From: Bilabrum cf. latius
Lineage: Eukaryota
Length of the DNA stretch: 64,000 nt
Reading direction: 5' to 3'
Assembly (NCBI GenBank): GCA_965178125.1
Contig: OZ237739.1
Coordinates: 1 to 64,000 of the forward strand
Position 1 is the stretch's first letter. Every line of letters begins with the position of its first letter. The position numbers and the translations under genes are program-made. Shown piece after piece: positions 6,316-64,000 of this stretch. The notes beneath the pieces are model-generated. The model had not been told where the DNA came from and did not search any database. It worked only from the letters and a program-made list of their open reading frames with translations.

Positions 6316-9295
6316 ATGCGTGGTGCAAGAACAACATGTATCCACACTCCCACACTTCAAGGACATTACTAGATGGACATAGCTTCGATATGGTCGCGGT
6401 GTAGAACAATTATAAGCGAACGCGACCTTCACTTGGCCGGGAAACGCATAGTGGTCCCAGAAGTACAGTCGTGGAAGCGTCTCATGGGGTCATGCATGGT
6501 CAGTCACCCTGAGCCCAAGATATTGGTCTAGAATTTGGCGACCACGTTGCAGGCCTCGAAACTGTCTCTAGTAAGACGTGGCTGCATTAATAATCAAAGC
6601 TCAACTGGCAATGCAAGCATCCCGATCATGAATCGTACTTCCGGTTCGATTTCGTTCGCAGATTGTATCGCCCCCAGGACCAACGGGGACACTACTTCTG
6701 TAGACTTTGGCTGGCATATGCAAGTACGAATAGCCATGTGCGTCAAGTAGCTAGGCATCTGGAGGCCATGCAGCCCAAAGTCGAGCAGTCGAGCCACATG
6801 GCAGCATTCGATACGTACCTCGAACTGACAGCCATCAGTGCATGCTATCTGTTGAAGAGACGATGGCACTTGCGGTTGGCCTCTCTGTGGATATTCTTGA
6901 CTCATCCATCACTGAGGAGAAGGCCGCGAGCCATCTGCTAGAAATGTTTGGGCTTTTGCGTCTGAAAGACACACTCGTAGGAAGTAGCTGGGATTCCAGC
7001 CACGGAAATGGGCATTCCGGAATATCTGGGGGAGAGGTAAGATGTCATGGCTGCCACGCGCGCTTGTCTTGGGTTCGCCGCATTCAGCATGGATGCCACA
7101 CCGTTGCTTTGACCGATGCCTCTTGCATTTTCAACAGTCCCATTGTTTCATCACCACAGGCTAGACGACTATCAATTGCAGAAGCAATTTCCACCCCGAT
7201 GGCAGCTATGCTCCTCGACGAGCCGACTAACGGGCTGGATGCTGGCTGGGCGCTCCGAACTGTGGAGCTGCTTGGCCAGCTGGCCCGGTAGGCTCGCATC
7301 CCTGTGGTCATGACGCTGTAGTAGCCCTCGATAGATATATTCCAGCTGTTTGAGCACGTGGTCGTGCTTGGACTGGAGGGGCAGTGCATATACGAGGGGC
7401 CCCGGCAGGACGTGGCTCGGAGCTTGGTCTAGCGCGGCCTCGAGTGCCCGCTCCATGTGTCCCTCCCCGAGTGGCTCGTGGCGCTGGCATGCTCTCCGGG
7501 GGATGTACTGGCTGCGCACTGCCATCGATCGGGTTCACAGATCGCATCACCGTCCCCAAGCAGCCCCCTCTGGACACACGGCTAGAGCCGCGAGGAAGGC
7601 GCAGGGCGGGGGGTGGTCGGCAAACAAGGGCAAGTCACAGATGCAGTCAGCGGACAGATGTGCAATGACACTGGAAGTATCGCAGAGTCAAACACTACCG
7701 GAGACAATGTAGGCTAGGAAAGAGTGAAGGCCACCATCAGCCAGCTGGGCTCGAGCACCAGTAGTTTGCCAGCTCAAGTCCCCACGCAGGCCACTGTGTC
7801 TAGATCTGTTCAGGATACTCGCATGCCAGCACCTCCAGGTTGGACTACGCCGGATGCGGGCCGTTCCGAATTAGGCTCGCTGGACCGCATCTTCCACGAG
7901 CTGAGGCTGCTGCTGTGGGCAGATTGCCTTGTCGTGTGGCGGGACACTGCATATGTGAAGGCACACATTGTGAATGCAATTGTCATTGGGCTGCTGATTG
8001 GAGGGGTATACTTCCAGCTCGACTCTACCGATTACTAGCAGTAAGCCGCATCTGTGCATCACTAGCGCTTTGCCTCCTTAGCCTTCCCCTCACCTCCCTC
8101 TCCAAGATTGCACGCCGTGCCATCGTGCCGTCGCAGGGTGGTGTCGTTGTCGTATTTCTGCTACCTGTACTTGGTATCAGGTAACATCACAGTGATTCCG
8201 CTTGCTTTGAGATCCAGAGAAGTCGCCGCGAAGCATGTGCTCGCGTCGCGCGTTCGCTGGCCCTGTGCGCAGGCCTTGAGCGCGTGCCTAGCTACAATAC
8301 CGATCGCAGTATTGGAGTGCATCATCGTGTCGACCTGCTTCTACTTCATGGCAGGGCTCGTTCCGAATGCTGCGTCATACTCCCTCTTTGTTGGAATCGC
8401 CATTCTGGTGGACGTGGCGATGGCAGGCTATTTCAGATGCGTGGCCTGGCTGAGCGGGTCGAGAGGGTACGCCTTTGCCCAGTCGGTTGCTCTCGGCCCC
8501 TTGGCACTGATTCAGCTCACGAACGGGTTCGTGGTTACGCAAGAGAACCTCAGCCCGCTCTTCCAAGGCATTTATTGGGCTAACCCTCTCGCGCATGGGA
8601 TTCGGGCGGTGGCAATAGACCAGTTCCAGTCCCCTCGCTATGACCACAGGCTGCTGTTGGCGGCACCTCTGAATGGGTCCGCTGCCCTAGGTCCGCGGGC
8701 AGGAGATGCCTATTTGAATGCTTTCTAGATTTCAACAGAAAGAGGGGAATTCTGGGTTCTGGTTAGCCTAATGGTCCTCGTTCTGCAGGCCGTGTGTTGC
8801 AACGGATGCTCCATTGTGGCCTTCTCCTGCTGCATAGCTTCACCTGGAGATACTGCCATTCGCCATGCACGACCTGGGGTAAAACATGCTCGCAACGTGT
8901 TGGATGCCCTGGAGCGCGCGTCAGGCATTCCATCGCAGCCGGTCTAGGTATGTGAGGGTCGCCAGCCTGTCCCAAAACATGCATCGCCTCGATGCAGCAT
9001 CGCTTGGCAGGACCTGTCGGTTGCAGTGCACACCGATGCAGAGGACAAAGAAATACTGAGTAATGTCTATGGGATCTGTAGCAGTGGGCAGGTCGCGGCA
9101 GTCATGGGCAAGTCCGGGGCAGGGAAGAGCACGCTCATGAATGCGCTCGTTGGTGCGGCCCCAGCTGCTGGCTCAGTCCAGGGGACTGTGCGCGTTGGAT
9201 TTGCGAACGATCCTAGACGCGGTGGGCCTGCGGTTGCATACGTAGAGCAATTTTCCCACCTTGTGCCGCAGCAGACTGTGCTGGAGACATTGCAG
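6316..9295 (+). pseudogene. ABCG/PDR-type ABC transporter, 3'-truncated (NBD1-TMD1-partial NBD2)
   Basis: With TAG=Q and introns at ~6571-6661, 7037-7159 and 8041-8137 the frame is open. It gives a degenerate Walker A (IVSPPGPTGTLLLQTLAG), signature ISGGEARRLSIAE, Walker B MLLDEPTNGLD, H-loop region TL**PSIDIFQLF, TM segments, and NBD2 Walker A GKSGAGKST plus Q-loop YVEQ. No NBD2 signature or TMD2 follows. The start codon is uncertain. Confidence 0.75.
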
Positions 9296-9726
9296 GTGCC
9301 AGTGCCGGGGCTAGCAGGTTGGGTGTGTGGGCGATGGATGGGGCCATGGTGCCAGTGCCGGGGCTAGCAGGTCGGGTGTGTGGGCGATGGATGGAGGCCA
9401 TGGTGCCTGTGCTGGTGCAAGCAGGTCGGGTGTGTGGGCGATGGATGGGTCCATGGTGCCTGTGCCGGGGCTAGCAGGTCGGGTGTGTGGGGCGATGGAT
9501 GGGGCCATGGTGCCTGTGCTGGGGCAAGCAGGTCGGGAGTGAGGGCGATGGATGGGGCCATGGTGCCTGTGCCGGGGCAAGCAAGTTGGGAGTGAGGGCG
9601 ATGGATGGGGCCATGGCGGATGTGCTGGGGCAAGCAGGTCGGGAGTGCGGGCGATGGATGGGGCCATGGCGGATGTGCTGGGGCAAGCAGGTCGGGAGTG
9701 CGGGCGATGGATGGGGCCATGGCGCC
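9292..9726. repeat. ~58-59-bp minisatellite (~7 copies), probably intronic
   Basis: GGTGCC(A/T)GTGCCGGGGCTAGCAGGTCGGGTGTGTGGGCGATGGATGGGGCCAT repeated with progressive divergence. Confidence 0.9.
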
Positions 9727-9848
9727 TAGCACCATCGTTTCGAGCACAGATCTGGCTCAGTGCGATCGTGCGACCACTTGGACGCTGCACAGTATCGCCA
9801 TCTTGTGGACTCTGTCAACTTGTACGGAACATGCCAACTTTGGGGGAG

Positions 9849-11651: not shown

Positions 11652-12155
11652 GCAGCAGGTGCCTCAATGCAAGCTTCATATTCTGTGCTGGCGAGCCTTT
11701 GGGCACACACACCACTGCGGCAGGTGTGACAACGCCCCCTAACTGGACGGGACGAGGCGACGCCCCCTAACTGGACGGGACGAGGCGACGCCCCCGGCAG
11801 AGCCACCACGGGGACGGGGCTAACGGGCACCTGGCCCGGGTCGAGCCGAAAAAAAGAAAACCCTAGGCTCGGGCGAACAGCGCCCCTGCCCGAGCCAAAC
11901 ATTCCGCTCAGGCGCGATCTCTGAAATCGAGACAAACCTAGTTTAAATAATTCCGCTTGGCAAAGTTGTCCCGTGCCCGAGCCGAACTTTCGGCTCGGGC
12001 ACGGCCGCCGTCTGCCACAGCCCAAGGTTCCGCTACGCCGGCGGCGCCAGCGGGACGTGCTGCACTGCATGGTGTGTCGGTTTCGTGAAGTTGCCACTGG
12101 TTGGTCGGCATCACCAGGGCACATTGCTCCTTCGCATAAATAGAGGGGGGTAAGG

Positions 12156-13115
12156 ATGCCCAAGGAAGTATCGGATGCCAAAACTATGAAAGGGGCCGAA
12201 ATCGCCAAGTCAAAGCCAAAGGATGAGCTGAAGGTCCCAGACCCGGCGTTTTCGTACCCCATGCTTCTTTTGGGATTCATGTGCTTCGTTCCCCACGCCC
12301 TGTTTCTGTGGCACAAGTACGAAACTACTAAGGACAAGGAAAACCCGTTTGGGGAGACACCGTGGTATGAGCCTGTGTCGTTGGCCGTGGGCTACCTCAC
12401 AATGCTATACCTCGGCCCTCTGGCGATGGCCGGCCGCAACTCGTTCCAGATCAAGGAAATTATGGTTGCCTACAACGTTTACCAAGTTATTCTCAATGCT
12501 GTTATGGTAGCTGGACTGTGGCATGGGGCATTGAATGATGGGCAGCCGCTGTGGGGCAAGGTGCTGGACTTTGGCCCGAAGGGACACCCGATCGCATTTT
12601 TCGTCTGGATGCACTACAACGACAAGTTTGTAGAATACCTAGACTCGTTGTTCTTTATCATGCGGCGCAACTTCTTCCTGCTGACTGGCCTGCACTGCTG
12701 GCATCACCTCATTATGGGTCCGGTGTGGTGGTGTGTGATCGCTTATGCTGCTGGAGGTGATGCATGGTACGGAAGCATGTGGAACTCGTTCATCCATGTC
12801 GTTATGTATGGATACTACGCCCTCAAGATCGTAAAGAGTCCCATCGCGAGCTCTATGCAGATGTGGGTGACTGTCCTATAGCTGGTGCAGTTCTGCGCCG
12901 TGGCCGCCCAGAGTGCCTACTTGCTGTATCGCGAGCATGCGCTGGGCATCCCCTCGTACCCGACTTGGCTGACCATCTTGCAGCTGCTTGTGATGATGAA
13001 CATGTTCGTGATGTTCATGCAGTACTTCGCCGGCAGGTACTGCGGGGGCAAGAAGAAGAGCAAGGGCAAGGACAAGGAGACGGCCGCCATCCAGGGCGGC
13101 AAGAAGACCGAGTGA
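12156..13115 (+). CDS. Fatty acid elongase (GNS1/SUR4, ELO family)
   Basis: Motifs KFVEYLDS, LHCWHH (HxxHH box), NSFIHVVMYGYY and TVL*LVQF, where TAG 12879-12881 sits at the conserved Q. C-terminal KKTE ER signal and TGA stop. Confidence 0.93.
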
Positions 13116-13304: not shown

Positions 13305-13430
13305 TCACCCAGGCCCTTGCCGCCTCGACCTAGACTGCAGCGCAGCCCACTGCTGCTGGTACAAAGAGCCCCCCCTTGGCACCCCCTGGGGCACCCCTTG
13401 CTGCATGGGCATGCTCGGTGCGACTCCGGA

Positions 13431-13464
<34 letters not shown>

Positions 13465-15461
13465 GCTTCGACTGACGGGACGGTTCGCTACATATGCACC
13501 TGGCCTGCCGCCGGCGCTGACCCCGCCGTGCCAGCCGCACTTGGGTTGATGCGGACCCCTTGTGCCATGGCTTGCTGCTGCATAGCCATCATCTGCTGCC
13601 TCATTGCCATCATCTGCTGCTGCATAGCCTGCATTGCCTGCATCTACTGCCAGGCAGCGGTGCCAGGTATCCCCATCCCAGTACTCATGCCAGCGGCACC
13701 CGGCCCCCTGCGCCCACCGACAGGGGGCAATACCCCCGGAGGCAGACCCAGTGCCGCAGGGGTGCCCTGTGCAGCTGGCCCTGTGCCTGGCGCGTAGAAA
13801 GCAGGCCCATAGTCGAGCGGTCGCGCCTTGTCCTGCTCCTTGCGCTGTCTCCTCCGACTCACTCGAGCGCGAGGCTTACCATCCCCTGCTCCAACACCAC
13901 CATCTGTCCCTGCACCCGACTGCTCCCCCGCCCCAGCCCCCGGCCGCACCCTCCGCTTCGCCGCCTTGCGCGCCTTCTTCGCCCTGGCCTCCTCCTCATC
14001 GTCACTGTACTCCATCTCCCAGGCGTTAGGCTCCTCGTCGTGCCACGTGGACGCATCGCTGCCTTTGACCCTGCAGGCGTGCAGCTTCACCGCCCTGGCT
14101 GCAGTGGGCAGGAAGCACAGCGGAGTGCCAGCCTCCAGCTGCGACACATCGCACACAGGCAGGCGGGAGGCACGGCCAACACGAGGAGCCGCAGCTGCTG
14201 GAGTAGTCTCTACCTCCCCTGCTCCATCTCCTGCCCCGTCCCTAGCATTGTCCCCGTCCTCCATTCCCACCTGTTCTCCGCTCCCAGCGCCACTCTCATC
14301 CGCGCCTGACGGCTGGCTCACTCGTTTGGGCAGCTTGACCGTGTACATGGGCGCGTGCACAGGGCCCCACACCTCCACGATCCGGCCCACGACGCTGACA
14401 GGGACATATCGGGCGACCTCGGCATCGCGCGAGGCAGCCTGCGCCTCGATGGCACCTGCCCCAGCCCCAGCTCCAGCCCCCGCACCGGCTGGAGTCGAGC
14501 CGCTGGCCACGCCCTCCTGACCGGCTGCCTGCGCGGAGACAGCCAGATCGGGGGCAGCATGGATGGATGGAACCAGAGCTCCGACGGCCCTTGTAGCCGC
14601 TTCAGAAGCAGGCAGCCCGGCCAGAGCAGCCCGCTGTGCGGCCAGCTGCGCCTCGAACACCGCTTCCTACGAGCCTGCCCCCATGCCTTGCTGCTGCCGC
14701 TCGTCCCATGTCCGGGGAACCTCGGGTGCATCCTAAGTGCGCCGGCCATGAAGAAGAACCGTTCCTTCATCAAGTGTGACGACTCCAGCAGCTGCTCTAG
14801 CCACCACTACCCTATCATGCGGGGAGTAGTGTAGCAAGCTGGCCGCAGCTCGAGCCGGGCCAGGCTTGTCGACTTCAGCCGTCGTATCAGCAAGAATAAC
14901 TGGAGCATCATCAGCCTCTGCTGTTGCAGAGTCAAAATCTCGTTCATGCTCCGATTTGGGGCCACCAGCGAGCAGTGACGTTCCACCCGCCGGTGCTGTC
15001 CCAGTCACGCTGTCAGCGACTGAACCTTCATCGCTGTCCTCGTCGCTGCCATCAGAATCATCGGAACCATCGCTTTGGCTTGACTCATCTTCAGGTGAAA
15101 CGTCTTGCCTGGTGGGTCCGCCTGATTGGACGTCATCGTATCCCTCCTCGCTGCGATCTGCGCGGGCTTCTGGAGGGCCAATCTCCAGGGCGATTTGGGC
15201 TAGGTCAGCAGAATGGCCAGTCAACGCTGAAGCAGATTTCCCTTCATTTTCAACAGCTGCTGCATACACGACGCCGGGCGAGGCTTCTGGTTCTCCTTTT
15301 GGCCCAGAAGGAATCGCTGCATGAACAGCAACAGCTTCAAGCGACTCAGCGGGAACCATTGGAAGCCCATTCGTCGAAGTGGTAGGAGCTTGCGCAAGCG
15401 GATCAAATTCATCATCAGATTCAAGGGCTGGGTCATGAATAGCTTCTTTTGAAGACGACAT
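13305..15461 (-). CDS. NAF1: H/ACA snoRNP assembly factor NAF1 (Gar1/Naf1 domain)
   Basis: VVGRIVEVWGPVHAPMYTV and KGSDASTWHDEE...EYSDDEEE. Single frame through TAGs at 14733, 14667 and 13644, into a Gln/Met-rich tail ending in TGA. Confidence 0.85.
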
Positions 15462-15528
15462 AATCTTGCAATACCTTCAGTTGACGTTGTGGTGTTCTTT
15501 GTTTGCATGTTCCGGTTTCGGAACTCGA

Positions 15529-17232
15529 TCATCGAGGTCCACTGCTCTCGACCCGGCGCTTCTTCTTTGCGCCAACCCCAGAAGTGAGCAATCTACCGCC
15601 GGCGCGAGCATCGGAGTCGCCAGTAGCACCAGCCGCCTCTGCCTCCCCAGCGTCTACAGCTGCCTCGGCCTCGCCGTCCTCCTCAGCTTGCCCAGCCCCA
15701 GCCCCAGCCTCGCCGTCCTCCTCAGCTTGCCCAGCCCCAGCCCCAGCCTCGCCGTCCTCCTCAGCTTGCCCAGCCCCAGCCCCAGCCTCGCCTTCCTCCT
15801 CAGCTTGCCCAGCCCCAGCCCCAGCCTCGCCGTCCTCCTCAGCTTGCCCAGCCCCAGCCCCAGCCTCGCCTTCCTCCTCAGCTTGCCCAGCCCCAGCCCC
15901 AGCCTCGCCTTCCTCCTCAGCTTGCCCAGCCCCAGCCCCAGCCTCGCCGTCCTCCTCAGCTTGCCCAGCCCCAGCCCCAGCCTCGCCGTCCTCCTCAGCT
16001 TGCCCAGCCCCAGCCCCAGCCTCGCCGTCCTCCTCAGCTTGCCCAGCCCCAGCCCCAGCCTCGCCGTCCTCCTCAGCTTGCCCAGCCCCAGCCCCAGCCT
16101 CGCCGTCCTCCTCAGCTTGCCCAGCCCCAGCCCCAGCCTCGCCGTCCTCCTCAGCTTGCCCAGCCCCAGCCCCAGCCTCGCCGTCCTCCTCAGCTTGCCC
16201 AGCCCCAGCCTCGCCGCCCTCCTCAATCACGTCGGGGATCTCACCATCAGCAGGGAAATAAGCGGGGATGGCACTCCTGTATGCGTCCGTGGCCGCATAA
16301 TCAAAGACACAGAAAATGACCCGCTCCAGACAGCTGCTTCCTGCCATAGGGTCCTCTGGTTTGGCTGCATCAGGGCTGCCACTGTCGCCGCCTGCACCAG
16401 TGCCTTCAGTATCCGTGGCTGCGCGCCCAGGCGGAGTTACACCAGCTACATTCGGTCCAGAGGAAACACTCTGTTCCTTGGCCTCGCTTCTTTCACCACC
16501 ATCCGATGCAACCGCGCCGACCGCTGCGTCCTCGCTGCGAGCATCGGATGTATTTGCATCCCCACCTGCAGCAGACTCGGACCCTTTTGGTACATCTAGA
16601 GGCAGGCTAGTGGCCTGACTGTCAGCACTTCCTCCTGCGCCCTGTTTGCCTGCGCTTGCCTCACGTTCCCGAGCACTGCGGGCCATGTGGGCGCGCACCT
16701 CCTCGAGCGCGATACAGCTGGCTTCTTCCACGGGGTATCCATACACACCCGTGGAAACGCTGCAGAATGCAATGCTCTTAAGTTGGCGATTATCAGCTTC
16801 TCGCAGCACCGACCTGTAACACTGTCGCAGTTGGTGTTCTGCCTCATCGGCTCGCCGGCGGTAGTAAATCGGGCCAACGGTGTGAATCACAAATTTTGCA
16901 GGTAGGTTGAACCCATGAGTTGTCTTGGCATCGCCAGTATCGCAGCCTCGGAGTCGCCTGCAAGCGTTTAGTAGGCGGGGTCCCGCTGCCCGGTGGATGG
17001 CTCCATCAACCCCACCTCCACCAAGCAAGCTGCGATTCGCTGCATTCACAATAGCATCAACTGGCAACCTTGTGATATCTCCTCGCCACAAGTAGATGCT
17101 TGCAGATAATCGTTTCAGGATGTCAGGATCCAATGCTATTCGCTTGGCTTGTCTAGCTGATGCTTGTTGCGCATGCTGGCCGCCGTTCGCAAATACAACG
17201 CCAAGCTCGCGAATGCTTTTTAGCCCTTTCAT
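15529..17232 (-). CDS. Macrodomain protein (MacroD/YmdB-like) with acidic repeat tail
   Basis: [45 protein letters not shown] and [16 protein letters not shown] stop. Confidence 0.92.
15668..16222. repeat. 39-bp coding minisatellite (~14 copies) in the macrodomain gene
   Basis: Encodes [13 protein letters not shown] on the minus strand. Confidence 0.93.
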
Positions 17233-17394
17233 CGTCTGCCGATGTACGTGACAATGCTCTGGTCTTTCGTACAATTTCTGATTCGGCCAGGCCTTTCGTG
17301 GAATCGCACGCAACCGCGCCGGCAGAGAAAGCCCAGGCGGTCAGCACGTATTACAGCGGTTGCTATTGCCAAGACTCATTCTCCAGTTGATACA

Positions 17395-20300: not shown

Positions 20301-20739
20301 AGAGGCAGAGGCAGAGGCAGAGGCAGAGGCAGAGGCAGAGGCAGAGTCTAGCAAGGCCGCCGAGGATATGGAGAAGGGTGAGGAAAAAGTTAAGGAGAAG
20401 GGGAAGAAGGGCGTCAGCGAGGAATCAGCGGGTGTGGATTCAGAGCTTGCTCCTGTTGCGAGTGCTGCGGTCACTGAGCCAGACGCAGCAGAGCCAGCGC
20501 GTGGGAACCTGGATGACGCTGCTGACAATGGGCCGGGCTCGGTTGGGGAGCCAGGGGTCGAATCCAGTGGGGACGTGTAGGCGTTAGCGAGTGGTGCAGA
20601 AGAGAGCAATGGTGATCCTGTAGGGGCAGGCTCTGATAATGCTGCTGGTTCTCATGACTTGGAAGGGAACCACGGTGAGGGCAGTTCAGTGGAATCGGGG
20701 GACTTCAGAGATGCGGAGGAGGATGAAGAGGATTGGTGA
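17395..20739 (+). CDS. Hypothetical ~1114-aa acidic/coiled-coil protein
   Basis: One continuous frame from ATG 17395 to TGA 20739 when TAGs at 17491, 17581, 19228, 19234 and 20578 are read through. Contains a D/E tract, a coiled-coil region and (AE)n. Confidence 0.75.
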
Positions 20740-21967: not shown

Positions 21968-22305
21968 GATGTCGTGAGGACCTCGCCTGCTGGTTAGCAT
22001 CACGTGATGGTCATGTCTCCTCGCGACCGAGCTCCGATGCCCTCAGGCGCTGCCCTTCTCTACTTTATTATCATGTTTGTACCGCAGCAGCGTCACCGTA
22101 AACCCAGGCCGCGTGGGCTGATCATCATGGGAGCCTTGTGCTCACAGGCGGTTGAGCAGACTGCCTTGCCAGTGGCTTGGCATGCCACGCGCGCGGTACC
22201 ACCCCTCGCGCACTAGTATGTGTCGATAGGAAGAGATCTTAAAGCTCACGAAGCGCTGCTCGCTGCTAGTCTCAGAGCGAGCCCGGTTGGCGATGACAAT
22301 GAGAT

Positions 22306-44598: not shown

Positions 44599-44721
44599 TT
44601 TGTTAGGCGTGTGGACCGAGCCAGAATAAAGCTAAATCGGATTCTTGGCCCATTTATTATAGGGTGCCATTATTCGACAGCTTAGCGTTTTCCTATTGTT
44701 TTGCCCCATTGGGAGCACGCA

Positions 44722-50700: not shown

Positions 50701-51413
50701 CGCCTGGCCGATCGTCGCAGAGCCAGTTGCATCTCTAGACGGAATAAGGAGAGCCAGAGGGCTCCCTGACGAGGGGCAGGCAGCGCTCGCAGCCCGCGCT
50801 GCAGCCAGGCCCTGCTCGCGCCCACGTCCCCGGCGCCGTCGTCCCACGCCGCAGCAGCCGCAGCAAGCCACAATTCTACTGAGTGGGGGTGCAGTGCCGT
50901 TGCTTTGGGGAAAATGTCTTGCTCGGTTCGCTTGTGCTTGTGCCGCCTGGCGAAACCTGCAAATCCAAGCCATACGTCGACCCTCTTTCCAAGCCGACGG
51001 GCGGCGCGCTGCCAAATGAAAAGTGCCCTCTGCATTGGCTAGTAATCATGTGGAGACGGCTTTTGTATGCCTGCGAAAATGAGGTGCTGAGGTTTGGAAC
51101 TCCATATATCGATGCAGTTGCAGATGAGCGCGGTACTGTCTGTGCCTCTTGGTAGCGTACTGAGGGTCTCACCCATCTACTACCTGCGAATCTACAGCAT
51201 TTTATCTAGTGTTTCTTCGTATTCAGCCGCCTTTCTCCATACATCAAGGCTTGCTGCCTCCACTTTTGCTCTTGCAACCAGCTGATACTCAAATTCTCTA
51301 CGTTTCGTTGTAAGGGCCCTGATCTCATGCTCATTCAAAAGACCACGCTCGCCCCACGAAAGAAGAGCGGGAGCGGTACGCTCCAATATGCGCTATACCT
51401 CTGACGCGGCCAT
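47790..51413 (-). CDS. UTP6: U3 snoRNA-associated protein 6 (HAT repeats) with long insertions
   Basis: MAASEV*RILER...RREFEY, then HAT-like repeats (ALHPHSVELWLAAA; LQRGLRALP; LWLSLFRLE). One intron near 51.1 kb, TAG at 48522, TGA stop. Confidence 0.8.
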
Positions 51414-51574
51414 GTTGTGGCAGCAAGGATGGCTTCAATTCTGTTGTTGCCTGCTTGGGTACGTGACGAGTGATGGACCGTCGGATGTGCCACCACCACG
51501 ACTGATGGCACCGCTGCGATCGGATAGCCATACTTCAGATACATCAGTATGATTCACAAAGATAGTTTAGCCAT

Positions 51575-54500: not shown

Positions 54501-56391
54501 GCTGCTGCAGGTGCTGCCTCCTTGGCCTTGGTCTCGCCCTCCTCAGCGGGTGCTGCTGCTGCTGCTGCTGCAGGTGCTGCCTCCTTGGCCTTGGTCTCGC
54601 CCTCCTCAGCGGGTGCTGCTGCTGCTGCTGCAGGTGCTGCCTCCTCGGCCTTGGTCTCGCCCTCCTCAGCGGGTGCTGCTGCTGCTGCTGCAGGTGCTGC
54701 CTCCTTGGCCTTGGTCTCGCCCTCCTCAGCGGGTGCTGCTGCAGCTGCTGCAGGTGCTGCCTCCTCGGCCTTGGTCTCGCCCTCCTCAGCGGGTGCTGCT
54801 GCAGCTGCTGCAGGTGCTGCCTCCTCGGCCTTGGCCTTGGTCTCGCCCTCCTCAGCGGGTGCTGCTGCTGCTGCTGCAGGTGCTGCCTCCTCGGCCTTGG
54901 TCTCGCCCTCCTCAGCGGGTGCTGCTGCTGCTGCTGCAGGTGCTGCCTCCTTGGCCTTGGTCTCGCCCTCCTCAGCGGGTGCTGCTGCTGCTGCTGCAGG
55001 TGCTGCCTCCTTGGCCTTGGTCTCGCCCTCCTCAGCGGGTGCTGCTGCTGCTGCTGCAGGTGCTGCCTCCTCGGCCTTGGTCTCGCCCTCCTCAGCGGGT
55101 GCTGCTGCTGCTGCTGCAGGTGCTGCCTCCTCGGCCTTGGTCTCACCCTCCTCAGCGGGTGCTGCTGCAGCTGCTGCAGGTGCTGCCTCCTCGGCCTTGG
55201 TCTCGCCCTCCTCAGCGGGTGCTGCTGCTGCTGCTGCAGGTGCTGCCTCCTCGGCCTTGGTCTCACCCTCCTCAGCGGGTGCTGCTGCTGCTGCTGCAGG
55301 TGCTGCCTCCTTGGCCTTGGTCTCGCCCTCCTCAGCGGGTGCTGCTGCTGCTGCTGCAGGTGCTGCCTCCTCGGCCTTGGTCTCGCCCTCCTCAGCGGGT
55401 GCTGCTGCTGCTGCTGCAGGTGCTGCCTCCTCGGCCTTGGCCTTGGTTTCGCCCTCCTCAGCGGGTGCTGCTGCTGGTGCTGCAGGTGCCGCCTCCTCGG
55501 CCTTGGTCTCGCCCGTCTCCACCACAGTAGGCAAGAATGCCTCTCCGCCACTCTCTTCGTGCCTGTCCTTGACATTCTCCACAGCCTCGCTGACCTTGGC
55601 CTTGGTTTCTGCTGAAAGGCTCTCCACGTCTGCATCTGTGCTCGTCACAGTGCCGTCCTCCTGGAGGTCCAGCACGCGGGCCTCGGGCTTGTCGGCCCCG
55701 CCCGATTCCTCGTGGTCCTGCTTCATGTCTTCTACGGAGTCTTTAACGGCCTAGGCCACATCCGGAGAGAGTTCGCCCAGGCTCTGCTGCGTGGGCGGGG
55801 CTTGCTCGGCAGCCTTGGCTTCCTCCTTGGATTCCGAAGCAGCTTCCACCCCAGTTTCGCTAGTTGTCTCGCTCTTCTCAGCATCAAGAGAGGGTAGATC
55901 ATCTGGATTGGCACCTGCGTGATCTGTTCCGCGGCCAATAACTTTGTCTGCCATCGAAATGTCGTCCTTTGGCTCGAGACTAGCTACTCCAGATTGCAAC
56001 AGTGCAGAGCCTCGCAGACCAACGTAAGCATGCTGCGATCCGAAAAATAATAAACTTAAGACAATATATTCGCTAGAAATGGCAGCAAGTGCGTAAGGAT
56101 AGCCACCAAGCTTCAACACATGTTGCAAGCCTTCGGTCCTCACGGGTGCTAGCCCTGCCGCGTCGCTATTCATTCGTCGGCATTGCGAAACGCCTGCGTC
56201 GATGGAACAAAATAAAGATGTGGATGCAATGTGCGCTGCCATAGAGAAAACACGAGGCTGAGATCGGTGTGAAAGGGCAAGCACGGATCGACCATGCTGC
56301 TGGCACCTCTTCTGGGGTTTATGAAGACACAATCCAAACACTTACCAGCTGATAAGGCTATGATCGATAATATTATTGCAATTGACCGCAT
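51575..56391 (-). CDS. Large secreted Ala/Glu-rich repeat protein (~1500 aa)
   Basis: Signal peptide MRSIAIILSIIALSA followed by a GTAAG intron, then one frame through TAGs at 55751, 53321 and 51602 to TGA 51575. Three repeat blocks and a Cys-rich module. Confidence 0.75.
52845..53250. repeat. Coding repeat (APVADE[A/V]AP...)n
   Basis: Modular short units within the secreted protein gene. Confidence 0.85.
53945..54200. repeat. Coding acidic repeat (DSKDEEE)n
   Basis: 21-27-bp units. Confidence 0.85.
54460..55512. repeat. ~60-bp coding minisatellite (~17 copies)
   Basis: Encodes A[E/K]EAAPAAAAAAPAEEGETK. Confidence 0.93.
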
Positions 56392-56575
56392 GATACAACC
56401 ACCAGGGCTAGTACAGAGCACCCGGGAGGTCGTTGTAGGGGAAAGCCAGCTCTGCCTCTCGAAAACCAGTCTATGCACGTTACAAAAAATCATGATGTTC
56501 CGCAAAGGATGCGCGGCGTCTGTCCGGAGTGGAAATAATACACTTAGGATTTGAAATCAGCAACTCTGTGATAGC

Positions 56576-57727
56576 ATGGACGCATAGACAGCCATTGATG
56601 CTGGATCAGTATTTTCATTTGCAGCAGGAGGCATTAGCACCGAGAGCGATGATTGGAATAAGGTAGAAGAGCTATTATCGAGCAAACCAATGCTTGCCAG
56701 GGTAAAGGACCAGCACGGGGACTACGCCATTCACAAAGCGTGCGAGCGAGGAACACTAGATGCTATTGATCGATTAGTGCCGCATTCACGAGCAGCTCTA
56801 TCGAAGCCAGGGGCCCGTGGCTGGCCCCCGCTTCACGTTGCCTGCTTGCAGGGACGCGCAGATGTTGTCGCCAAGTTGCTGGGGTGTATTTCTAGCTCTC
56901 ATGGGAATGTGGTTGCCGCAGAGTGCACGGCTTTGAGACATTCTGCAAGGTTAGTGCCTCCTCTGGGCGTGGCATGCGCCCGTGGGCTCTCTGACGCAGT
57001 GCTGGTCCTCGCAAAGGCCGGCGGCCCAACCTGGGGCCCAGCCAGCGCGGACACTGACGGTCTCACGCCGGCCCACTGGGCTGCTGCGCATGGCCATGGC
57101 TCATGTATTATGCAATTAGCCCAAGCGACGGAAGAAGCTTGCTCGAGCGCCCGCCAGCGCCTACCCACCGAGCTGGACTCCGTGCTGGCGGCAACTGCAA
57201 AGGACGGGAGCACCCCTCTGCACCTGGCCTGTGCGGGGGGACACATGAAAGCAGCCGTGTGGATCTGTGACGCGGGTGCGCGGCGCTGGGCTCGCGCCCA
57301 GCTTGCTGCCCGCCGACTGTCTGCCTCCTCCTCCTCGAGTGCTGCAGCCGAGGGGGACCAAGGAAGCGCTGCAACGTCCTCGTCCTCGTCCTCGTCTGTA
57401 TATGCTTCAAGCAGCGGAGTAGATTCCGGGGGAGTCGGCGGCGGGATGGAAGACCAGGATGCACTCGTCAGGGAACAAACCAAGTATTGCGAGAACAGGC
57501 TGCTGGGGGCTGCGGACGCGCGGGGCCGCACCCCGATGCACGTCGCCGCCATGGCGGGGCACTCCTCTCTGGTGGCCCAGCTCGTGTCCAGGGGAGGGGA
57601 CATGGCGCGGGGGGACCACACCGGGATGACTCCGGCGATGCTTAAGAAAGATGCAGAGGCTGCCCGGGTGGCGGCTGCCAGTGCTGCCATGCATGCTGCC
57701 GGTGGGGAGGACGCCGTGGAGACCTGA
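56576..57727 (+). CDS. Ankyrin-repeat protein
   Basis: GWPPLHVAC, GLTPAHWAA, GSTPLHLAC and GRTPMHVAA. The upstream in-frame ATG needs readthrough of TAG at 56585; TGA stop. Confidence 0.9.
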
Positions 57728-57867: not shown

Positions 57868-60702
57868 TCACCTGCTGGACACCACGGAGCGGAACGCCTC
57901 CTGAGAGAGCCGCACCTGCCCCACGCTCTTCATCCTCGCCTTGCCCTCCTTCTGCTTCTCCAGCAGCTTCCGCTTGCGACTCACGTCCCCCCCTCCCACG
58001 GTCTTGCCGCTCTTGGTCAGCACGTCCTTCCTGTAGGGCGCGATCCTCTCCCTAGCGACCACCTTGCCGCCCACGAGTGCCTGAATGACCACCTCGAACT
58101 GCTGCCGCTTGATCTCCGCGCGCAGTCGCTGCGCCACCCGCCTACCCTCCACGTCGGCGGTGTCAGCCGGCGCCACGAAGCTGAGAGGCTCCACCTCCTT
58201 CCCGTTGAGAACCATATCAACCTTGACCACGTCGCTCTCCCTGAAGCCCGCTGGCTCGTATGCCATGGCTGCGTATCCCTTGGTCACGCTCTTGAGCTGG
58301 TCGAAGAGGTCCTTGGCCAGCTCCTGCCACGGCACCTCATACAGCAGCACCGCGGGCGGACCCCCATCCCCACCCTCCTCCCCGCTCCCGCCACCGCTCG
58401 CGCCCATGACCGCGTCTGTCTACCATTCCATGTCCAGCTGCTCGCCACGGCTGTCCCGCAGCACCCGCATCACAGCAGCCACACCCCAGTCCGGACACCG
58501 CACCTCGCACCTCACCACGGGCTCCCACACCTTGGCGATATCTTGCGTGCTGGGCATCTGGTCAGGCCTCCGGGCTACCACGCAGCGCCAGGCCGCTGCG
58601 CCCTGCGAACGCACCGCCTCCAGCGCGCCCGCCGTGTGCTAAAGCTCCCGGTCGAATGAGGTTTCAGGCAGGTCCAGGGCCGCGATGCGAGCCGAAAGGT
58701 CTCCCCCCACACCGCCGCTGCCTTGCTCCGCCTCATCGATCGCGCTGCGGAAGGCCTTCAGGTCGGCCCCCGCCGCTCTAAGCTCTCTCTCGAAGTCCAG
58801 CTTCCTCTACTTGGCCCCCTGCGAGCCCTCCTTGAGCACGACAAGCAAGGGGGCCATGGGCGCCGTCACCACGACCTCCTGTCCGTGCTCCTGCCGCAGC
58901 CTCTCCTGCACCACGTCCATGTGCAGCAGTCCGAGGAACCCGCACCGGAACCCGCTCCCGAGACTGGCGCTCCTCTCCTTCGTCGCCTCCAGCGAGGCGT
59001 CTGTCAGCTGCAGCCGAGACACCGCCGCGTCCAGCGCCTCAAAGTCACCCCCGTCCGCGGGATAGACGGAAGCAAACACCATCGGTCGCGCCGGCTCGAA
59101 CCCCGGCAGCGGGTGCACATCCGCCTCTCCCGCCCGCAGGGGCACTGACGGCCTGTCGGGGTCATCGACCAGCGTGTCTCCAACGCGGCACTCCCTCGCA
59201 TCCCGAATCCCTGCGGAGAACCAGCCCACGGTCCCCGCCGGCAGCACGTCTGCCCTCAGGGGCCTGGGCGAGAGGATGCCCAGGTCCTGCACGCGGTACC
59301 TCTTGCCCGTGCTGGCCAGCTGCACAGAAGCTCCCTTCTTCAAGGAGCCGTCCCTCACCTGCACCACGCCCACGGAGCCACGGTGCGGGTCGTGCCAGCT
59401 GTCAAAGAGGAACCCCCGCAGACGAGAGGCCGGCTGCCCGCTGCCCCACCCGGTGGACGCTCCCGCCCGGGCCCGCTCCGCCGCCACGCGATAATACTCG
59501 TCCATCGAGGCAGGGTCAGGATTCGGAGCATCGCCGGCACCGGCCTGGCGCTTGTCTCTGACCCCCCTTCCAGGCGCGGGGGGCGGCAGCATCTCCGCGA
59601 TTGCCCTCAGCACGTCCGCTGTTCCCTCGCCCGTCTTGGCGCTCGTCCACAGGCACCACTCCTCCGCGTGAGGAGGGAACAACAGACCCCCTCCCCCCGT
59701 GCCTCCGCTTCCACTCACACCGCCACCTGACTCTCTCTCCCTCTGACTCGCCTGCCAGGCCACCTCGTCCTGCAGCAGCCCACGCAGCGCAAGCTCCGGG
59801 TCTGCCCCTGGCAGGTCCACCTTGGTGAGCACCGGCAGCACGGCCAGCCCAGCGGCGCGGGCCAGCCGCAAGTTGGACAGCGTCTGTGCCTGCACGCCCT
59901 GGGCAGCGTCCACCAGCAGCAGCGCCCCGTCGCAGGCAGCCATGGCCCGGCTCACCTCGTACTAGAAGTCCACGTGCCCGGGCGTGTCGATCAGGTTGTA
60001 GAGCCAGGGGCCGGAGGAAGGGGCGTTGGCGCTTGACCCGCGGTCATCGCCGTCGCCTGGCTAGCCGGCTGGGTCCTCCCCCCAGTCCCAGCCTTTCCCG
60101 AGCGCGGCAGCCTCCGTCGCAGTCTCCCACAGCGGGCGAATCGGTGCAGCCGGCTCCTCCTCGCCGGCGTGTAGCCCAGCAACGGTTTCATGGGACAGAA
60201 GCAAGGACGCCGTCTGGGCACGCACAGTGATCCCTCGCTCTCGTTCGACATCGAGCATGTCAAGGCACTGCGACTAATCCTTGTTGAGCTTGTCTACATT
60301 CTGGGCGGTCTCGAGCAGCCGATCACACAGCGTGCTTTTGCCGTGATCAACGTGTGCAATCACGCACAGGTTACGAATCCTCTCCATTGGTATGTTTGCA
60401 TATGATTGCAACAATCGCTCCTCTCCCGCCGTGTTCACGGCCGAGGTTGACTGGGTTTGAGTAGAGGCTCCAGTAGTTGCACATCGGATGCTTCCGTGCC
60501 GGATGCAACCGAATGGACGCCGGTGTCTCGATTGGCGCAATTTCATTGACCCCAAAGACTAAGTGCACAGCTGGAGTTGCTTCCCGTGTGAAGCAGAGTG
60601 GCTTCGCGAGCACACTGACCTGGTAGATGCGACGAGCCGGGACAACACCTGCATTCTCCAAGTTCGCAGCAAAGCAGCGGCAGGCCGAACCCGTCGAAGC
60701 AT
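57868..60702 (-). CDS. GUF1: Mitochondrial translation factor GUF1/LepA (EF4)
   Basis: Presequence, [56 protein letters not shown] and [17 protein letters not shown]. Intronless frame through 7 TAGs (60559, 60274, 60061, 59962, 58807, 58639, 58420); TGA stop. Confidence 0.93.
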
Positions 60703-60983
60703 AAAAGACGTGATGTAGTGTGCTAGCTGCAGAGGAATTGGCCAACTCGGCTCGAGTGTGCTCTCTATTCGATCTCTTCATCGAGGAGACCAGCTCCGAA
60801 TCGTTGCGGCGGCAAGCACTTGCATGCCAGTGGTTCAGCGGCGATTTCGGTTGCACGAGCCAAAATGCTTGAAAGCGTAGTAGGTAGAGCAATACACGCA
60901 AAGCTAAGCAAACGCACAAGCACGAACGGCAGGCCCCTGAGACCTGCAGGCCGTCTCATCAGTGAGTGCCGAGGTGCATCACG

Positions 60984-63900
60984 TCAGAATTGGCTATCGC
61001 CATCGCTGTCGTACATGTGGGGCCAGTGCACCTGGCTCGACATACCGACCGCACCCGCTGGCACGTTAATCCCAGCCAGCTGGCCGTGGCTAGTGCCCAG
61101 CCCCTGGCTGGCCCCCGCCCCTCCCGCTCCCCCTCGCAGCCCCACGTGCAGCGGGTCCACGTCTGGGTCCAGCCGCAGAGGCATGGGGTCCACGCCGAGC
61201 CCTACTTCCTCACCCGCAGCCTAGTCGTGGGCCAGCAGCATTGGCGAGACAGAGGCTGGCAGGTCAACGCCAGCGCCTCCCCCCACCCCCACCCCTGCTT
61301 CAATCCCGAGAGGCGCCTCAATCGACTCAAGAACGAGCGGGTGTGCGTCACTGTGGGACAGGGTGTCGCGATGAGACAGGGTGTCGTGCCCTGCCGTCCA
61401 AGGGCCATGCAGGTGCGAAGCGGATGGATCGCTCGTCACATCGAGCTAAGCTCCCACCACGGAGCCAGCGCGAGAGAGTGAGTCGGAAGCACCGGACCCT
61501 GGCACGTGCGCCACTGATCCCGCGGGACTGCCAGGGTACGAACTGCCGTGCTAGGAGGAGGAGGAAGGGGGGGCGTGGGTGCGGGGCGGCAGCATGGCTG
61601 GTTCGATCTGCGCCCTCCCTTGACCAAAGCCGCGCTGGTGCCCTGGCCCGCGCTGGTGAAGAGGCGCCGCCAGCCGACGCAATTGAGGGGCACCCGAGAC
61701 AGCGGGGGCCTGGGAAGCCGGCCCACCCAGCACCCGCATTGCCACGGAGCCCATGCCGATGCCCTGGCCCACAGTCATGCTCCCGCTGTGGCCCACAGTC
61801 ATGCTCCCGCTGTGGCCCACAGTCATGCTCCCGCTGTGGCCAGCCAGCCCCGTCGACGCGCCAGGCTACAGCACCTGGTGCTGCCGCCACCTGCTGTTGC
61901 CCCCTTCACCGCGAGTCATGGACTCTGAGGAAGAGGAGGTGGACGAGGCCGAGGACGACGATGACGAGTGCGACGACGCAGTGCCATGCATCCTGCGGCG
62001 GTCCCTGATGCCGACGATGCCCCACGCATCCGACCCGCTGGACGAGTACCCAGTGCCCGACACAGAGCTGCCATCCTCGTCCTCTTCCCTTTCCCCTTGC
62101 CAGTCCACGTGCCCATGCCCGTGCCCGTGCCTGCTTCCCACACTCGCAGATCCCGAGCCAGAGCCCCCCACAGAGCCGGCGTCAGACAGGTCACCCGGCG
62201 CGCTGTCTCGTCCGGGGAACTCTGAGGAGCTGGGCGCCGACTGGGCCGATGCCACGCGCCCTCGCTGGTCGCGCCGTCTGGAACTGGGGTCGCGCGGCGG
62301 GGCGGTGCCGCCGATCATGCGCGAGAGCGGCATGCTGAGCCCGCCCTCGGGGCCGAGGGGGGTGCGGCCATCCTGAGGCTGCCCCCGGGGCGGTGCCACA
62401 GGCGCTCGGCTGGGGCTTGCGACAGCTCTCGATGATGAGGTCGCTGCAGCGGTGAGGTGCGCGTGCACGTGCTGGTGGTGCGTGCTGTAGCCCTGGCTGC
62501 CCGTCGTATCCACCATCACGGAGGCGCTCTGATACACCGCACCCGCACCCACACTCACACCCGAGTCCATGGCGCGCTGCCCAGTGCTGCTTGTGGGAGC
62601 TGAGGCAGCAGCGGGTGACTGCACAGAAGCCGCACCTGCAGCGGCCACATGCCCCGGTATCTCTCGCGGGGGTAGTGCCGCCGCCGCCAGCGCCACTGTC
62701 GCTGCCCTGGCCAGCTCCTTGCTTGCTTTCTTGCCCTCTTCCCCCGCGCCAAGCGCCAGTGCGAGCGCCCTCGATGCGCACCGCTGGGCGTGTGCCTCCG
62801 CCGCCACCAGCGCCGCCGAGTCGTTCTCCTGCGCCCCCACCGCTGCGTCAGAGGCGCCTGACGACTGGGGGGCAGGGCCGACCCCCAGCAGCATGCCCAG
62901 CTCGGACCAGGCCTCCTTCCCCTTCCCCTCGGCCCCCTTGCCCGCCCCCAGAAGAGCACGGAGAGCGCCCCTGCAGACCGCCAGCGCTGCCCTCGCGGAG
63001 TGAAGCCCGGCGACCTTGTCGCTGCCAGCCCTGTGAGAGTGGGCGTGCCTGGCCTGCAGAAGATCCCCCGTCTCCTCCAGGGCCGCAGAGCCGGACCCGC
63101 GCAGCGCACCCGCTACCTGCTACACAAACTCCCCGCGCGCCAGACGGGAAGCGATCACTGCGCCGGCGTGCCCTGGGAGAGCGCCGGCCTCTACGTACTG
63201 CCGCCCCTGTCCCTGTCCCTGTCCCTGTCCTTGCCCTTGCCCTTGCTGGAGCTGCTTCTCCCGCACGAGCCTGGAGGCCTTCACCACCCGCCGGGCCATC
63301 CAGGCACCCTGCTGCCGGTCCCTTAGCCCCAGGGCACTCGAGGCCACCGCCCCGGCCATGGCTCCCACAGCCCCCCACGCACCGTCGTCTCCCTCTTCGG
63401 CCCATGAAGCGTCACCGGCGGAGGCAGGCGACCTCTAGGGGGAAGCGGCCCTGCTGCTGCGCCCGCGCCGCGATGACGCCCCCCTCCTGCCGGACGAGGA
63501 CCTGCCCCCCTTCCTGCCGCCAGGTGCCTGCACCTTGAGCTCTGATCCCGGAGAGGGCAGCACAGCAGCACTCAGAGACTCGAGGGCCTCCGCCACTGCC
63601 TGCCGCCGGGCCCGCTCCCTCCCGTTCTTGCGCTCTCGGCGGGCTGTGGGGCCGGCGGAGGCCTGCGCGCGGGAGGACTTCGCGCGCCCCCCCCTGCTTG
63701 CACTGCGAGAGCGGAAAGTGCCGTCGGGAGCCGGGACGGGCGCGCCGTACTGCCCATCGTCCTGGTCATGGTACTGGTCCTGGCTCGCGGCACCGTCCTC
63801 AACATCCTCAGCGCAGTCGCCGAGGGCATGCGCGTATCTGCGGCGCTTCCTGGGTCTCCTGGAACTCTCGCGGCTGTTTGTGGCTGGCAGAGAATACTCT

Positions 63901-64000
63901 AATTCCGGCGGGCCCGCACCTGGTGCGCCAACAGAGACAAATGGATCGCTTGCGTTAGGGCCTGCAACGGCTTCCTGTGCGCTTGCCACGGCAGCACCAG
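60984..64000 (-). CDS. Low-complexity protein with a bHLH-like basic helix; 5' end outside window
   Basis: The ORFs ending at 63435, 63120, 61866, 61551 and 61221 share one frame and all stop at TAG; the final stop is TGA at 60984. Contains RRERKNGRERARRQAVAEALESLS. Confidence 0.6.

Follow-up and report, generated by a model that had tools for sequence, protein, structure and literature searches.

Do the genes in this stretch of Bilabrum cf. latius DNA use UAG as a codon for an amino acid, and if so, which amino acid does it specify and what has become of UAA? We have studied the 64 kb window (i.e., the whole stretch of DNA) together with a 14.7 kb metagenome contig, L001, from an environmental relative. 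Three further data sets (X5, X6 and X7) are RNA runs as judged by their spliced contigs, though none was registered as RNA, and X1 is an unspliced DNA run. The three RNA runs come from two studies, other than that of X1, and their contigs aligned to the window at 20400-34050 only. The reading that emerges, and that we regard as highly probable, is that UAG specifies glutamine and UGA ends all the examinable genes, and that UAA, which is not read as sense, is presumably a rarely used stop.

UAG is decoded as a sense codon in open, conserved and expressed genes of two species. The frames of the intronless GUF1, mS29, SLY1, UTP6 and ELO are open only when TAG is read through, and homology continues on both sides of the TAGs. 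GUF1 (LepA; 57868-60777, reverse strand) is a single exon ending in TGA and containing seven TAGs, at 60559, 60274, 60061, 59962, 58807, 58639 and 58420. The Pfam matches from GTP_EFTU through to LepA_C lie in one frame, the alignment with LepA in the PDB extends to either side of the TAGs, and there is an orthologue in L001. mS29 (DAP3; 23122-27498, forward strand; Pfam DAP3, E = 3.9e-19) has a long N-terminal extension, a TGA end and 11 TAGs spanning 23221 to 26212. Our recount of the TAGs in GUF1 and mS29 gave the same numbers as an earlier note on this DNA. The main exon of SLY1 (Sec1 family; 44636-47671, forward strand; Pfam Sec1, E = 2e-34) ends in TGA and has TAGs at 44660, 44933, 45065 and 45068; the frame lacks an upstream ATG, so that a first exon probably lies further upstream. 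UTP6 (47790-51434, reverse strand; Pfam U3_assoc_6) ends in TGA and contains six TAGs (51393, 51192, 51180, 51177, 51039 and 48522). The fatty-acid elongase ELO (11925-13115, forward strand; Pfam ELO, E = 4.3e-45) also ends in TGA, and has a TAG at 12879 within the sequence LxLVQF, where x is the TAG.

In-frame TAG was found elsewhere in the window. The second exon of RRP1 (Nop52; 31128-32492, forward strand; Pfam Nop52, E = 5.7e-35) ends in TGATGA and contains a TAG at 31749. A NAF1-like gene (13305-15476, reverse strand), with a weak Pfam Gar1/Naf1 match (E = 3e-4, below the curated cut-off), has four TAGs, two of which (13644 and 13488) lie in a tail rich in Gln and Met, and an ORF for a transposase of the PIF/Harbinger type (37144-38820, reverse strand; Pfam DDE_Tnp_4, E = 3.9e-9) has eight. 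There are also long ORFs at 17161-20739 (forward strand; six TAGs, no Pfam family), at 39674-42322 (reverse strand; nine TAGs, one of them at 39782 within QSxQQQ; no known family) and at 60984-63998 (reverse strand; six TAGs, a weak HLH match). The last is open at the window end, and its orthologue in L001 contains 11 TAGs. All of these end in TGA. Altogether we count 72 TAGs in 15 reading frames, plus 14 in an ABCG-like frame, part of which fall in probable introns, and thus the earlier estimate of roughly 80 holds. The six TAG coordinates quoted with it (12879, 51393, 7319/7322, 13644, 39782 and 59962) are all exact. A few of the tallied TAGs sit in ORFs that lack homology, or are possibly located 5' of the true start.

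The ABCG-like gene provides a weaker case. This ABCG/PDR-like gene (6632-9595, forward strand; Pfam ABC2_membrane and ABC_tran) has introns, and its 14 TAGs are those of the frame read through them. Of the adjacent TAGs at 7319 and 7322 (TLxxPS), which had been put forward as lying at the H-loop glutamine, the second does align with the Q of the IHQPS/IYQCS motif of Pdr5 and Cdr1. However, the first ATP-binding domain is degenerate and the end of the gene carries a 53-bp tandem array at 9295-9727, which together with the introns indicates that the gene may be decaying. As evidence this gene is weaker than was claimed.

Might the TAGs be artefacts, in that the assembly is wrong, the RNA is edited to CAG, or the TAGs lie in introns or in pseudogenes? 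The ABCG-like gene, with some TAGs in probable introns and its possible decay, is what could be said for this. Elsewhere the RNA provides a direct observation. All 11 TAGs of mS29, together with the RRP1 TAG, are present in spliced RNA contigs of the three runs, with no differences from the genome, which shows that TAG is retained in the mature mRNA. An X5 contig covers mS29 at 23001-27588 with no differences and no gaps, and the contigs of X5, X6 and X7 are all colinear with the genome there, with no internal joint. For RRP1, the intron at 31039-31126 has been spliced out, and exon sequence 31127-32248 is covered without differences in the three runs. Since the mS29 TAGs are identical in spliced RNA, assembly error, editing and introns are excluded for that gene. 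X1 and the three RNA runs agree with the window without a single difference over 20400-32248 and 23001-27588. Moreover, the trait is repeated in an independent metagenome contig, with orthologues under purifying selection (see below). The explanation by artefact is refuted for mS29, RRP1, GUF1, UTP6 and SLY1, and we give it practically no credence overall.

We compared the number of in-frame TAGs with that expected by chance, using nine coding stretches whose borders are set by homology or RNA (6,739 codons). TAG occurs 31 times in frame, and 29 and 28 times in the two other frames. By contrast, TAA occurs 0 times in frame versus 7 and 10 times off frame, and TGA 0 times versus 93 and 155. TAG is thus not avoided in the coding frame, while the other two codons are excluded from it.

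These counts bear on whether UAG could have an ambiguous meaning, either as a context-dependent stop of the Condylostoma or karyorelict type, or as a codon read by a near-cognate tRNA-Gln with no dedicated suppressor. Natural near-cognate readthrough of UAG is described as inserting Gln (according to PMC13192750), so the residue would be as expected. Against this, TAG occurs about as often in frame as off frame, and TGA and TAA never occur in frame, in contrast to the ambiguous codes. Single genes contain up to 11 TAGs (mS29, and GUF1 of the relative), and even if each of 11 TAGs were read through at 90%, less than one third of the product would be full length. Nor does TAG end any of the 24 genes whose ends could be examined. 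UAG is not a terminator in these genes, and an ambiguous UAG is very unlikely.

The identity of the inserted residue can be approached by comparison with the environmental relative. L001 is syntenic with the window, the DNA being 66-74% identical. Its GUF1 is 74% identical to that of the window, colinear to the last residue, and contains 11 TAGs. Identity at the three codon positions of GUF1 is 0.78/0.84/0.42, a pattern indicative of purifying selection. The SLY1 proteins are 70% identical; TAG 45065 is opposite CAG, whereas at 45068 both species have TAG. There are two TAG sites common to the two species, and therefore the change in UAG is older than their split. UAG accounts for about 10% of the Gln codons in the window organism and about 24% in the relative.

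We examined pairs of orthologous codons in conserved context, requiring at least 8 identities among 12 ungapped flanking residues. At 13 of the 18 such sites the codon opposite TAG in the second species was CAG or CAA; under the same filter canonical Gln codons were opposite Q at 81%. The partners at the remaining five sites were A, E, H, L and G, once each. The log-likelihood for Q was -29.5, with the next residue at -66.1, i.e., Q is more than 36 units ahead of every other residue. Q was also ranked first when the flank threshold was set at 6 or 10. The fast-evolving g60 pair (36% identity), in which Q is opposite TAG at 1 of 13 aligned positions, was excluded from this likelihood count. TAGs in the GUF1 of the relative fall on columns where Q is present in 14/14, 14/14 and 11/14 homologues. 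Taken together, the codon pairs and the invariant Q columns show that UAG is glutamine, as the earlier note had proposed.

Individual sites conform to this assignment to differing degrees. The ELO TAG at 12879 was expected to be at a glutamine, and it aligns with the Q of LTSLQLVQF in the ELOVL7 structure. The same expectation for UTP6 is borne out at 51393, where the relative has CAA; opposite 51039 it has CAG. Three other UTP6 TAGs are opposite T, S and R, where conservation is poor, and the RRP1 TAG at 31749 lies in a non-conserved stretch and is uninformative on the residue. The GUF1 TAG at 59962 (DFxYEV, x being the TAG) had been raised as a caveat, the usual residue there being Ser or Thr. 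This is resolved by the relative, which has CAG at this codon, indicating Gln in this lineage on a column that is A, S, T or N in other organisms. That column, and the one bearing the GUF1 TAG common to both species, where 12 of 14 homologues have L, are what might be adduced for a sense codon with another meaning, such as the Leu of the rhizarian exLh or the Ser of Scotinosphaera. Yet neither L nor S is among the top-ranked residues, Q leads by more than 36 log units at all three thresholds, and in the relative three TAGs occupy columns where Q is invariant or nearly so. A residue other than glutamine is extremely improbable.

If UAG is read as glutamine, is UAA read in the same way? We counted in-frame TAA in 15 long ORFs of the window (13,252 codons), and found none against 61 TAGs. 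CAA makes up 114 of the 557 CAR codons (20.5%), so that about 16 TAAs would be expected from the ratio of CAA to CAG, and the probability of finding none is about 8e-7. In four orthologues of the relative (4,129 codons) there was again no TAA against 38 TAGs; there CAA makes up 48 of 122 CAR codons (39%), about 25 TAAs are expected, and the probability of none is 5.6e-9. In the two species together 99 TAGs were found in frame, and no TAA.

Two TAAs in the window do lie in frame between joined ORFs. One, at 28008, is located in an intron of SDHC (27996-28106, reverse strand; GTAAG...CGCAG). A CT..AC joint skipping these 111 bases is present in X5, X6 and X7 and absent from the DNA run X1, and the spliced frame encodes an intact Sdh_cyt protein. 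This TAA is within an intron supported by RNA, and so is not coding. The other, at 8042, is within an insert of the ABCG-like gene that looks like an intron. The earlier observation that the inferred exons contain no TAA is thus upheld.

These data deal with the proposal that both UAA and UAG are read as Gln, as in NCBI table 6, and that TAA has gone unseen because a GC-rich genome contains so little of it. UGA is the only stop observed and no confirmed gene ends in TAA, as table 6 would have it. However, CAA is common in both species while in-frame TAA is missing, TAA is found off frame in the same stretches, and the TAAs that join ORFs lie in an intron or in an insert resembling one. UAA is not read as Gln or as any other sense codon. 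We consider this proposal close to refuted, and highly improbable.

The ends of genes provide further information. We assembled a set of 24, comprising 20 from the window and four from the relative, the reading frame being backed by homology or RNA in 14 of the 20 window genes. TGA was found at all 24, and neither TAG nor TAA at any. SDHB, SDHC, SDHD and PLAC8 are well-expressed genes of the window, and all end in TGA. Only one candidate for a gene ending in TAA was found, a small spliced ORF (22375-22938, reverse strand) with an intron at 22768-22865 whose joint is present in three RNA runs. It matched no Pfam family, and a search of 1.84 billion representatives returned two hits, of low complexity. 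With no homologue, it was dropped as proof of a TAA stop.

Whether UAA should have been seen among 24 ends depends upon the reference chosen. In non-coding DNA of the window the ratio of TAA to TGA is 190:307 (TAA 38%), which predicts some TAA stops, and the probability of 0/24 is about 1e-5. The off-frame ratio in coding sequence is 17:248, which does not call for any, the probability of 0/24 being about 0.2. UAA presumably remains a stop. The earlier note had described UAG as decoupled from UAA; this stands insofar as UAA is not sense, while a role of UAA as terminator was seen at none of the 24 ends.

The alternative is that UAG is glutamine and UGA the only working stop, with UAA effectively unassigned or too leaky, in a transitional code. 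The 24 TGA ends accord with this, including as they do the well-expressed genes and those of the relative, whose GC3 is 0.54-0.58, as does the low probability calculated from non-coding DNA. Against it, the sample is small, the off-frame ratio makes the absence of TAA unremarkable, and the small spliced ORF at 22375 would end in TAA, albeit with no homologue. Where UAA has not been reassigned, no eukaryotic release factor is known to recognize UGA to the exclusion of both UAA and UAG, which also counts against this alternative. In its favor, the earlier UAG-only cases as described in PMC5304391 and PMC11687900 all mainly use UAA, which is not what is found here. On balance we judge a sole UGA stop to be possible but unlikely, and retain UAA as a rarely used stop in the preferred reading.

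A mechanism can be envisaged for the preferred reading. UAG would be read by a tRNA-Gln with anticodon CUA, which is a single anticodon change from tRNA-Gln(CUG), and which would not read UAA. Its partner would be an eRF1 that has lost recognition of UAG, still recognizes UGA, and probably recognizes UAA. A tRNA scan of the window and of L001 and L002 found no tRNA gene, and a scan of the sequences for RNA families gave no Rfam match.

In a tree of GUF1 the window and its relative lie on a long branch, in a polytomy with Cafeteria and other sequences. A specific affinity with the bicosoecids, suggested by the best named GUF1 hit, was dropped in view of that polytomy. The search with the SLY1 protein gave two weak hits dominated by low-complexity words, of no use for placement, and the PDB matches of SDHB and mS29 do not place the organism. 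We found no report of UAG as Gln in this lineage in the literature searched, most subscription journals and the supplements of papers, possibly with further taxa, lying outside that search. A new independent origin of the reassignment is likely, though not proven. It is doubtful, though conceivable, that we are dealing with an unrecognised, deep-branching, aerobic and GC-rich lineage of at least two divergent members, of which one is represented in metagenomes alone, and in which UGA is the sole stop and UAA an orphan, leaving 62 sense codons. Such a code would be an intermediate, still in use today, on the way from the standard code to UAR = Gln, and the opposite of all the earlier UAG-only cases, which lean on UAA.

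The code deduced here resembles several known systems in part. NCBI table 6, in which UAR is Gln, is used by many ciliates, the Dasycladales and hexamitin diplomonads. It shares with the present code UAG as Gln and UGA as the only terminator seen, but here UAA is not sense (no TAA against 99 TAGs). In the codes of Condylostoma and the karyorelicts every stop codon is found both in frame and at the ends of genes; here neither TGA nor TAA occurs in frame, and TAG ends none of 24 genes. The codon assignments of Iotanema coincide with those of NCBI table 15. Standard-code gene calling truncates the public proteins of this lineage (P0121 and P0122 are shortened pieces of UTP6), and so pipelines for annotation and for phylogenomics need table-15-like decoding.

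From the accounts in PMC5304391 and PMC11687900, nuclear codes that split UAG from UAA are rare, those listed being from one fornicate, one rhizarian and one green alga, together with a few lineages of ciliates. The present study adds an aerobic, GC-rich lineage and its environmental relative, seemingly unreported as such. The organism has been sequenced as both DNA and RNA, and it is therefore probably in culture. Its use of UGA bears on the co-evolution of release-factor specificity and suppressor tRNAs, and on whether the capture of UAG can be a step towards a UAR = Gln code.

UAG is Leu with UAA kept in the rhizarian exLh (PMC5304391), and also in a ciliate MAG, and is Ser in Scotinosphaera (as cited in PMC11687900); these share the decoupling of UAG and UAA, but the residue here is Gln. 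UAG alone is Gln in two phyllopharyngean lineages and Protocruzia tuzeti among the ciliates (McGowan et al., 2024; PMC11687900). Like them, this organism uses UAG as Gln and keeps UAA out of coding sequence. The ciliates, however, are reported there to have 86.9-98.3% UAA stops and 27-54% GC, whereas the window has 53-68% GC, CCCTAA (TTAGGG-type) telomeres, ordinary GT..AG introns of 88-372 bases, and gene ends that are all UGA. For Iotanema spirale (Metamonada, Fornicata), Panek et al. (2017; PMC5304391) describe UAG as Gln, with both UAA and UGA serving as stops. [quoted passage not shown] Yet Iotanema uses UAA as its main stop (104 UAA versus 15 UGA; PMC5304391), where all 24 gene ends are UGA here, and it is an anaerobic gut flagellate, while the GC-rich window, with its TTAGGG-type telomeres, encodes complex II subunits (SDHB, SDHC and SDHD), a mitoribosomal protein and mitochondrial GUF1.

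The window covers a eukaryotic chromosome end, with CCCTAA telomere repeats at positions 1-373 and a subtelomere of 155-bp repeats and further telomere blocks extending to ~6.1 kb. Within 1-6100 this 155-bp satellite, in ~33 copies, alternates with six separate CCCTAA arrays (1-373, 1591-1790, 2508-2862, 4080-4428, 5646-5857 and 5968-6078). Beyond lies a compact gene array with a GC content of 53-68%.

Reading through TAG opens long frames encoding complete conserved proteins, bearing out the proposal of the earlier note that UAG is a sense codon; the TAG coordinates quoted there were all exact. GUF1/LepA (57868-60777, minus strand) runs from GTP_EFTU to LepA_C in a single frame containing 7 TAGs. 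There are 11 in mS29/DAP3 (23122-27498, plus), 6 in UTP6 (47790-51434, minus), 4 in SLY1 (44636-47671, plus) and 2 in ELO (11925-13115, plus). NAF1 (a weak match), RRP1/Nop52, an ankyrin protein and an ABCG/PDR-like gene are also among the frames opened in this way. The last of these is subtelomeric and may be a pseudogene, since a 53-bp tandem array of 8 copies (9295-9727) lies where its second ATP-binding domain should continue, and its first Walker A region looks degenerate.

As a control, stop codons were counted in nine coding stretches (6,739 codons) whose limits were set by homology or RNA rather than by stop codons. In frame there were 31 TAG, 0 TAA and 0 TGA codons, compared with off-frame counts of 29/28 for TAG, 7/10 for TAA and 93/155 for TGA. 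Evidently TAG is equally common in frame and off frame; TGA and TAA, by contrast, are kept out of the coding frame. A PIF/Harbinger-type transposase ORF (DDE_Tnp_4; 37144-38820, minus strand) has 8 in-frame TAGs and a TGA end; it is either an element adapted to the host code or a decayed copy.

The TAG codons are not artefacts. Four public sequencing runs were aligned to positions 20400-34050. One (X1) gave a single unspliced contig of 11,988 bases, and is thus DNA. The others (X5, X6 and X7), from two other studies and under other organism labels, gave contigs of about gene size. From ten joints in these of GT..AG or CT..AC type, missing from X1, and a poly-T loose end, we deduce that the three runs contain RNA. 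A contig of 4,588 bases from X5 spans 23001-27588 with no differences, gaps or joints, and most of this span is also covered by X6 and X7. Processed transcripts thereby contain every one of the 11 mS29 TAGs as well as the TAG of RRP1 at 31749. The in-frame TAA at 28008 falls within the SDHC intron (27996-28106) defined by RNA joints.

The introns are ordinary (88-372 bases). The ten defined by RNA (20931-33744) begin GT[AGT]AG, except for one GTACG (after a 2-base joint shift), and nine end in CGCAG, an unusually long 3′ splice-site consensus. The complex II genes SDHC (minus), SDHD (minus) and SDHB (plus) are adjacent within 3 kb (27706-30600) and have one intron each; the 3′ end of the SDHD transcript extends into the SDHC region. 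Within 21303-22938, a well-expressed PLAC8 gene (plus) has an intron in its 3′ UTR, and its transcript overlaps tail to tail with a spliced transcript of the minus strand, in which the only long ORF would have TAA at its end.

The variant code is common to the organism and an environmental relative. A search with the UTP6 N-terminus returned two public protein fragments, cut short by standard-code gene calling. P0121 is 97% identical to the window protein, while P0122 is 67% identical across the whole match and near-identical at the N-terminus. P0121 (window UTP6 residues 133-306) begins directly after the TAG at 51039 and stops at a Gln codon of the window; its strain may have TAG at that position, a change that would be silent if UAG encodes Gln. 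P0122 led to a metagenome contig of 14,726 bases (L001), which is syntenic with the window over 43.3-63.0 kb (DNA identity 66-74%) and has orthologues of the 60984 ORF, GUF1, UTP6, SLY1 and purple acid phosphatase. GUF1 adjoins UTP6 in L001 (5806-6056), whereas in the window (51575-57727) they are separated by genes for a repeat-rich acidic protein (1,588 codons) and an ankyrin protein; these two genes (51.6-57.7 kb) have no orthologues on L001.

The four long orthologues of L001 contain 11, 11, 8 and 8 in-frame TAGs and no TAA, and all four end in TGA. Protein identity with the window is 74% for GUF1, 70% for SLY1 and 54% for UTP6, and GUF1 identity by codon position is 0.78/0.84/0.42. These values mark the orthologues as working genes subject to purifying selection. 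Both species have TAG at two of the same sites (GUF1 786/808 and SLY1 145/96), indicating that the code change predates their split.

Which amino acid does UAG specify? Orthologous codons were paired in GUF1, UTP6 and SLY1. The window contributed 17 TAG sites and the relative 27; 5 fell in gaps and 2 were TAG in both species. The remainder were filtered by identity over 12 ungapped flanking residues. With at least 8 identical, 13 of the 18 partners were Q, and A, E, H, L and G each occurred once. This is as expected of a Gln codon, since the same filter gives a Q partner for 81% of canonical Gln codons. At least 6 identities gave 15 Q, 3 A and five residues seen once, and at least 10 gave 8 Q and three residues seen once. 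Using substitution frequencies from these alignments themselves, the log-likelihood for TAG was −29.5 for Gln and −66.1 for the next residue, and Gln ranked first at all three thresholds. A fourth pair, the 60984 ORF (36% identity), was excluded from the count; there Q was 1 of 13 aligned TAG partners, with no more than 4/12 flanking residues identical.

Homologues point the same way. Three TAGs in the GUF1 of the relative lie on columns with Q in 14/14, 14/14 and 11/14 homologues. In ELO, the TAG at 12879 lies opposite the Q of the ELOVL7 sequence LTSLQLVQF; in ABCG, the second TAG of TLxxPS lies opposite the Q of IHQPS/IYQCS. The caveat raised earlier for GUF1 59962 is answered: other organisms have A, S, T or N at this site, but the relative has CAG. 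One site is odd: the shared GUF1 TAG lies on a column with L in 12/14 homologues. With codon pairs and Q columns in agreement, the earlier assignment of UAG as probably Gln is upheld.

The decoupling of UAA from UAG is likewise borne out, in the sense that TAA does not encode Gln. In 13,252 window codons there were 0 TAA against 61 TAG, with CAA making up 114/557 CAR codons. In the relative, where GC3 is lower, there were 0 TAA against 38 TAG, with CAA at 48/122 CAR codons (P = 5.6e-9); its gene limits were set by orthology, which keeps the test from being circular. We found no positive evidence of UAA as a terminator in 20 window genes and 4 of the relative, all ending in TGA. Homology or RNA supports 14 of the 20 window genes, and the spliced forms checked among them were SDHB, SDHC, SDHD, RRP1 and the PLAC8 gene. 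How surprising 0/24 TAA ends should be depends on the null model: the TAA:TGA ratio of window non-coding DNA (190:307) gives P ~1e-5, and that of off-frame coding sequence (17:248) P ~0.2. The sole TAA-ended candidate, a small spliced minus-strand ORF (22375-22938), matches no Pfam family and lacks a real homologue.

The conclusion that emerges is that the nuclear code here is a genuine variant, in which UAG is Gln and UAA is not sense. In the proposed mechanism, a tRNA-Gln(CUA) would decode UAG and not UAA, and would act alongside an eRF1 that has lost UAG recognition. PMC11687900 argues that the specificity of tRNA-Gln(CUA) is the reason UAG can change alone.

The organism carries the complex II genes, a mitoribosomal protein and a mitochondrial GUF1, and is thus aerobic and no fornicate. 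Nor do its GC content, its CCCTAA telomeres, set against the telomere types of ciliates, and the ordinary structure of its chromosome and introns fit a ciliate. An independent origin of the code change is therefore likely. The top named GUF1 match was Cafeteria (40% identity, 575 bits; bacteria ~470 bits), but in a GUF1 tree the window and its relative formed a long branch in a polytomy that does not place the lineage; PDB matches of SDHB and mS29 gave no help in placing it.

The variant code seems to have gone unreported in this lineage. Full-text literature, excluding supplements and most subscription journals, reported UAG as Gln only in the known cases, and the 7 papers found to name Iotanema with code terms described no organism such as this. 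Here UGA terminates every gene examined, an unusual feature. In contrast, UAA is the main stop codon both in Iotanema, with 104 UAA against 15 UGA (PMC5304391), and in phyllopharyngean ciliates, at 86.9-98.3% of stops (PMC11687900). UGA-only gene ends set the present case apart from every described UAG-only code.
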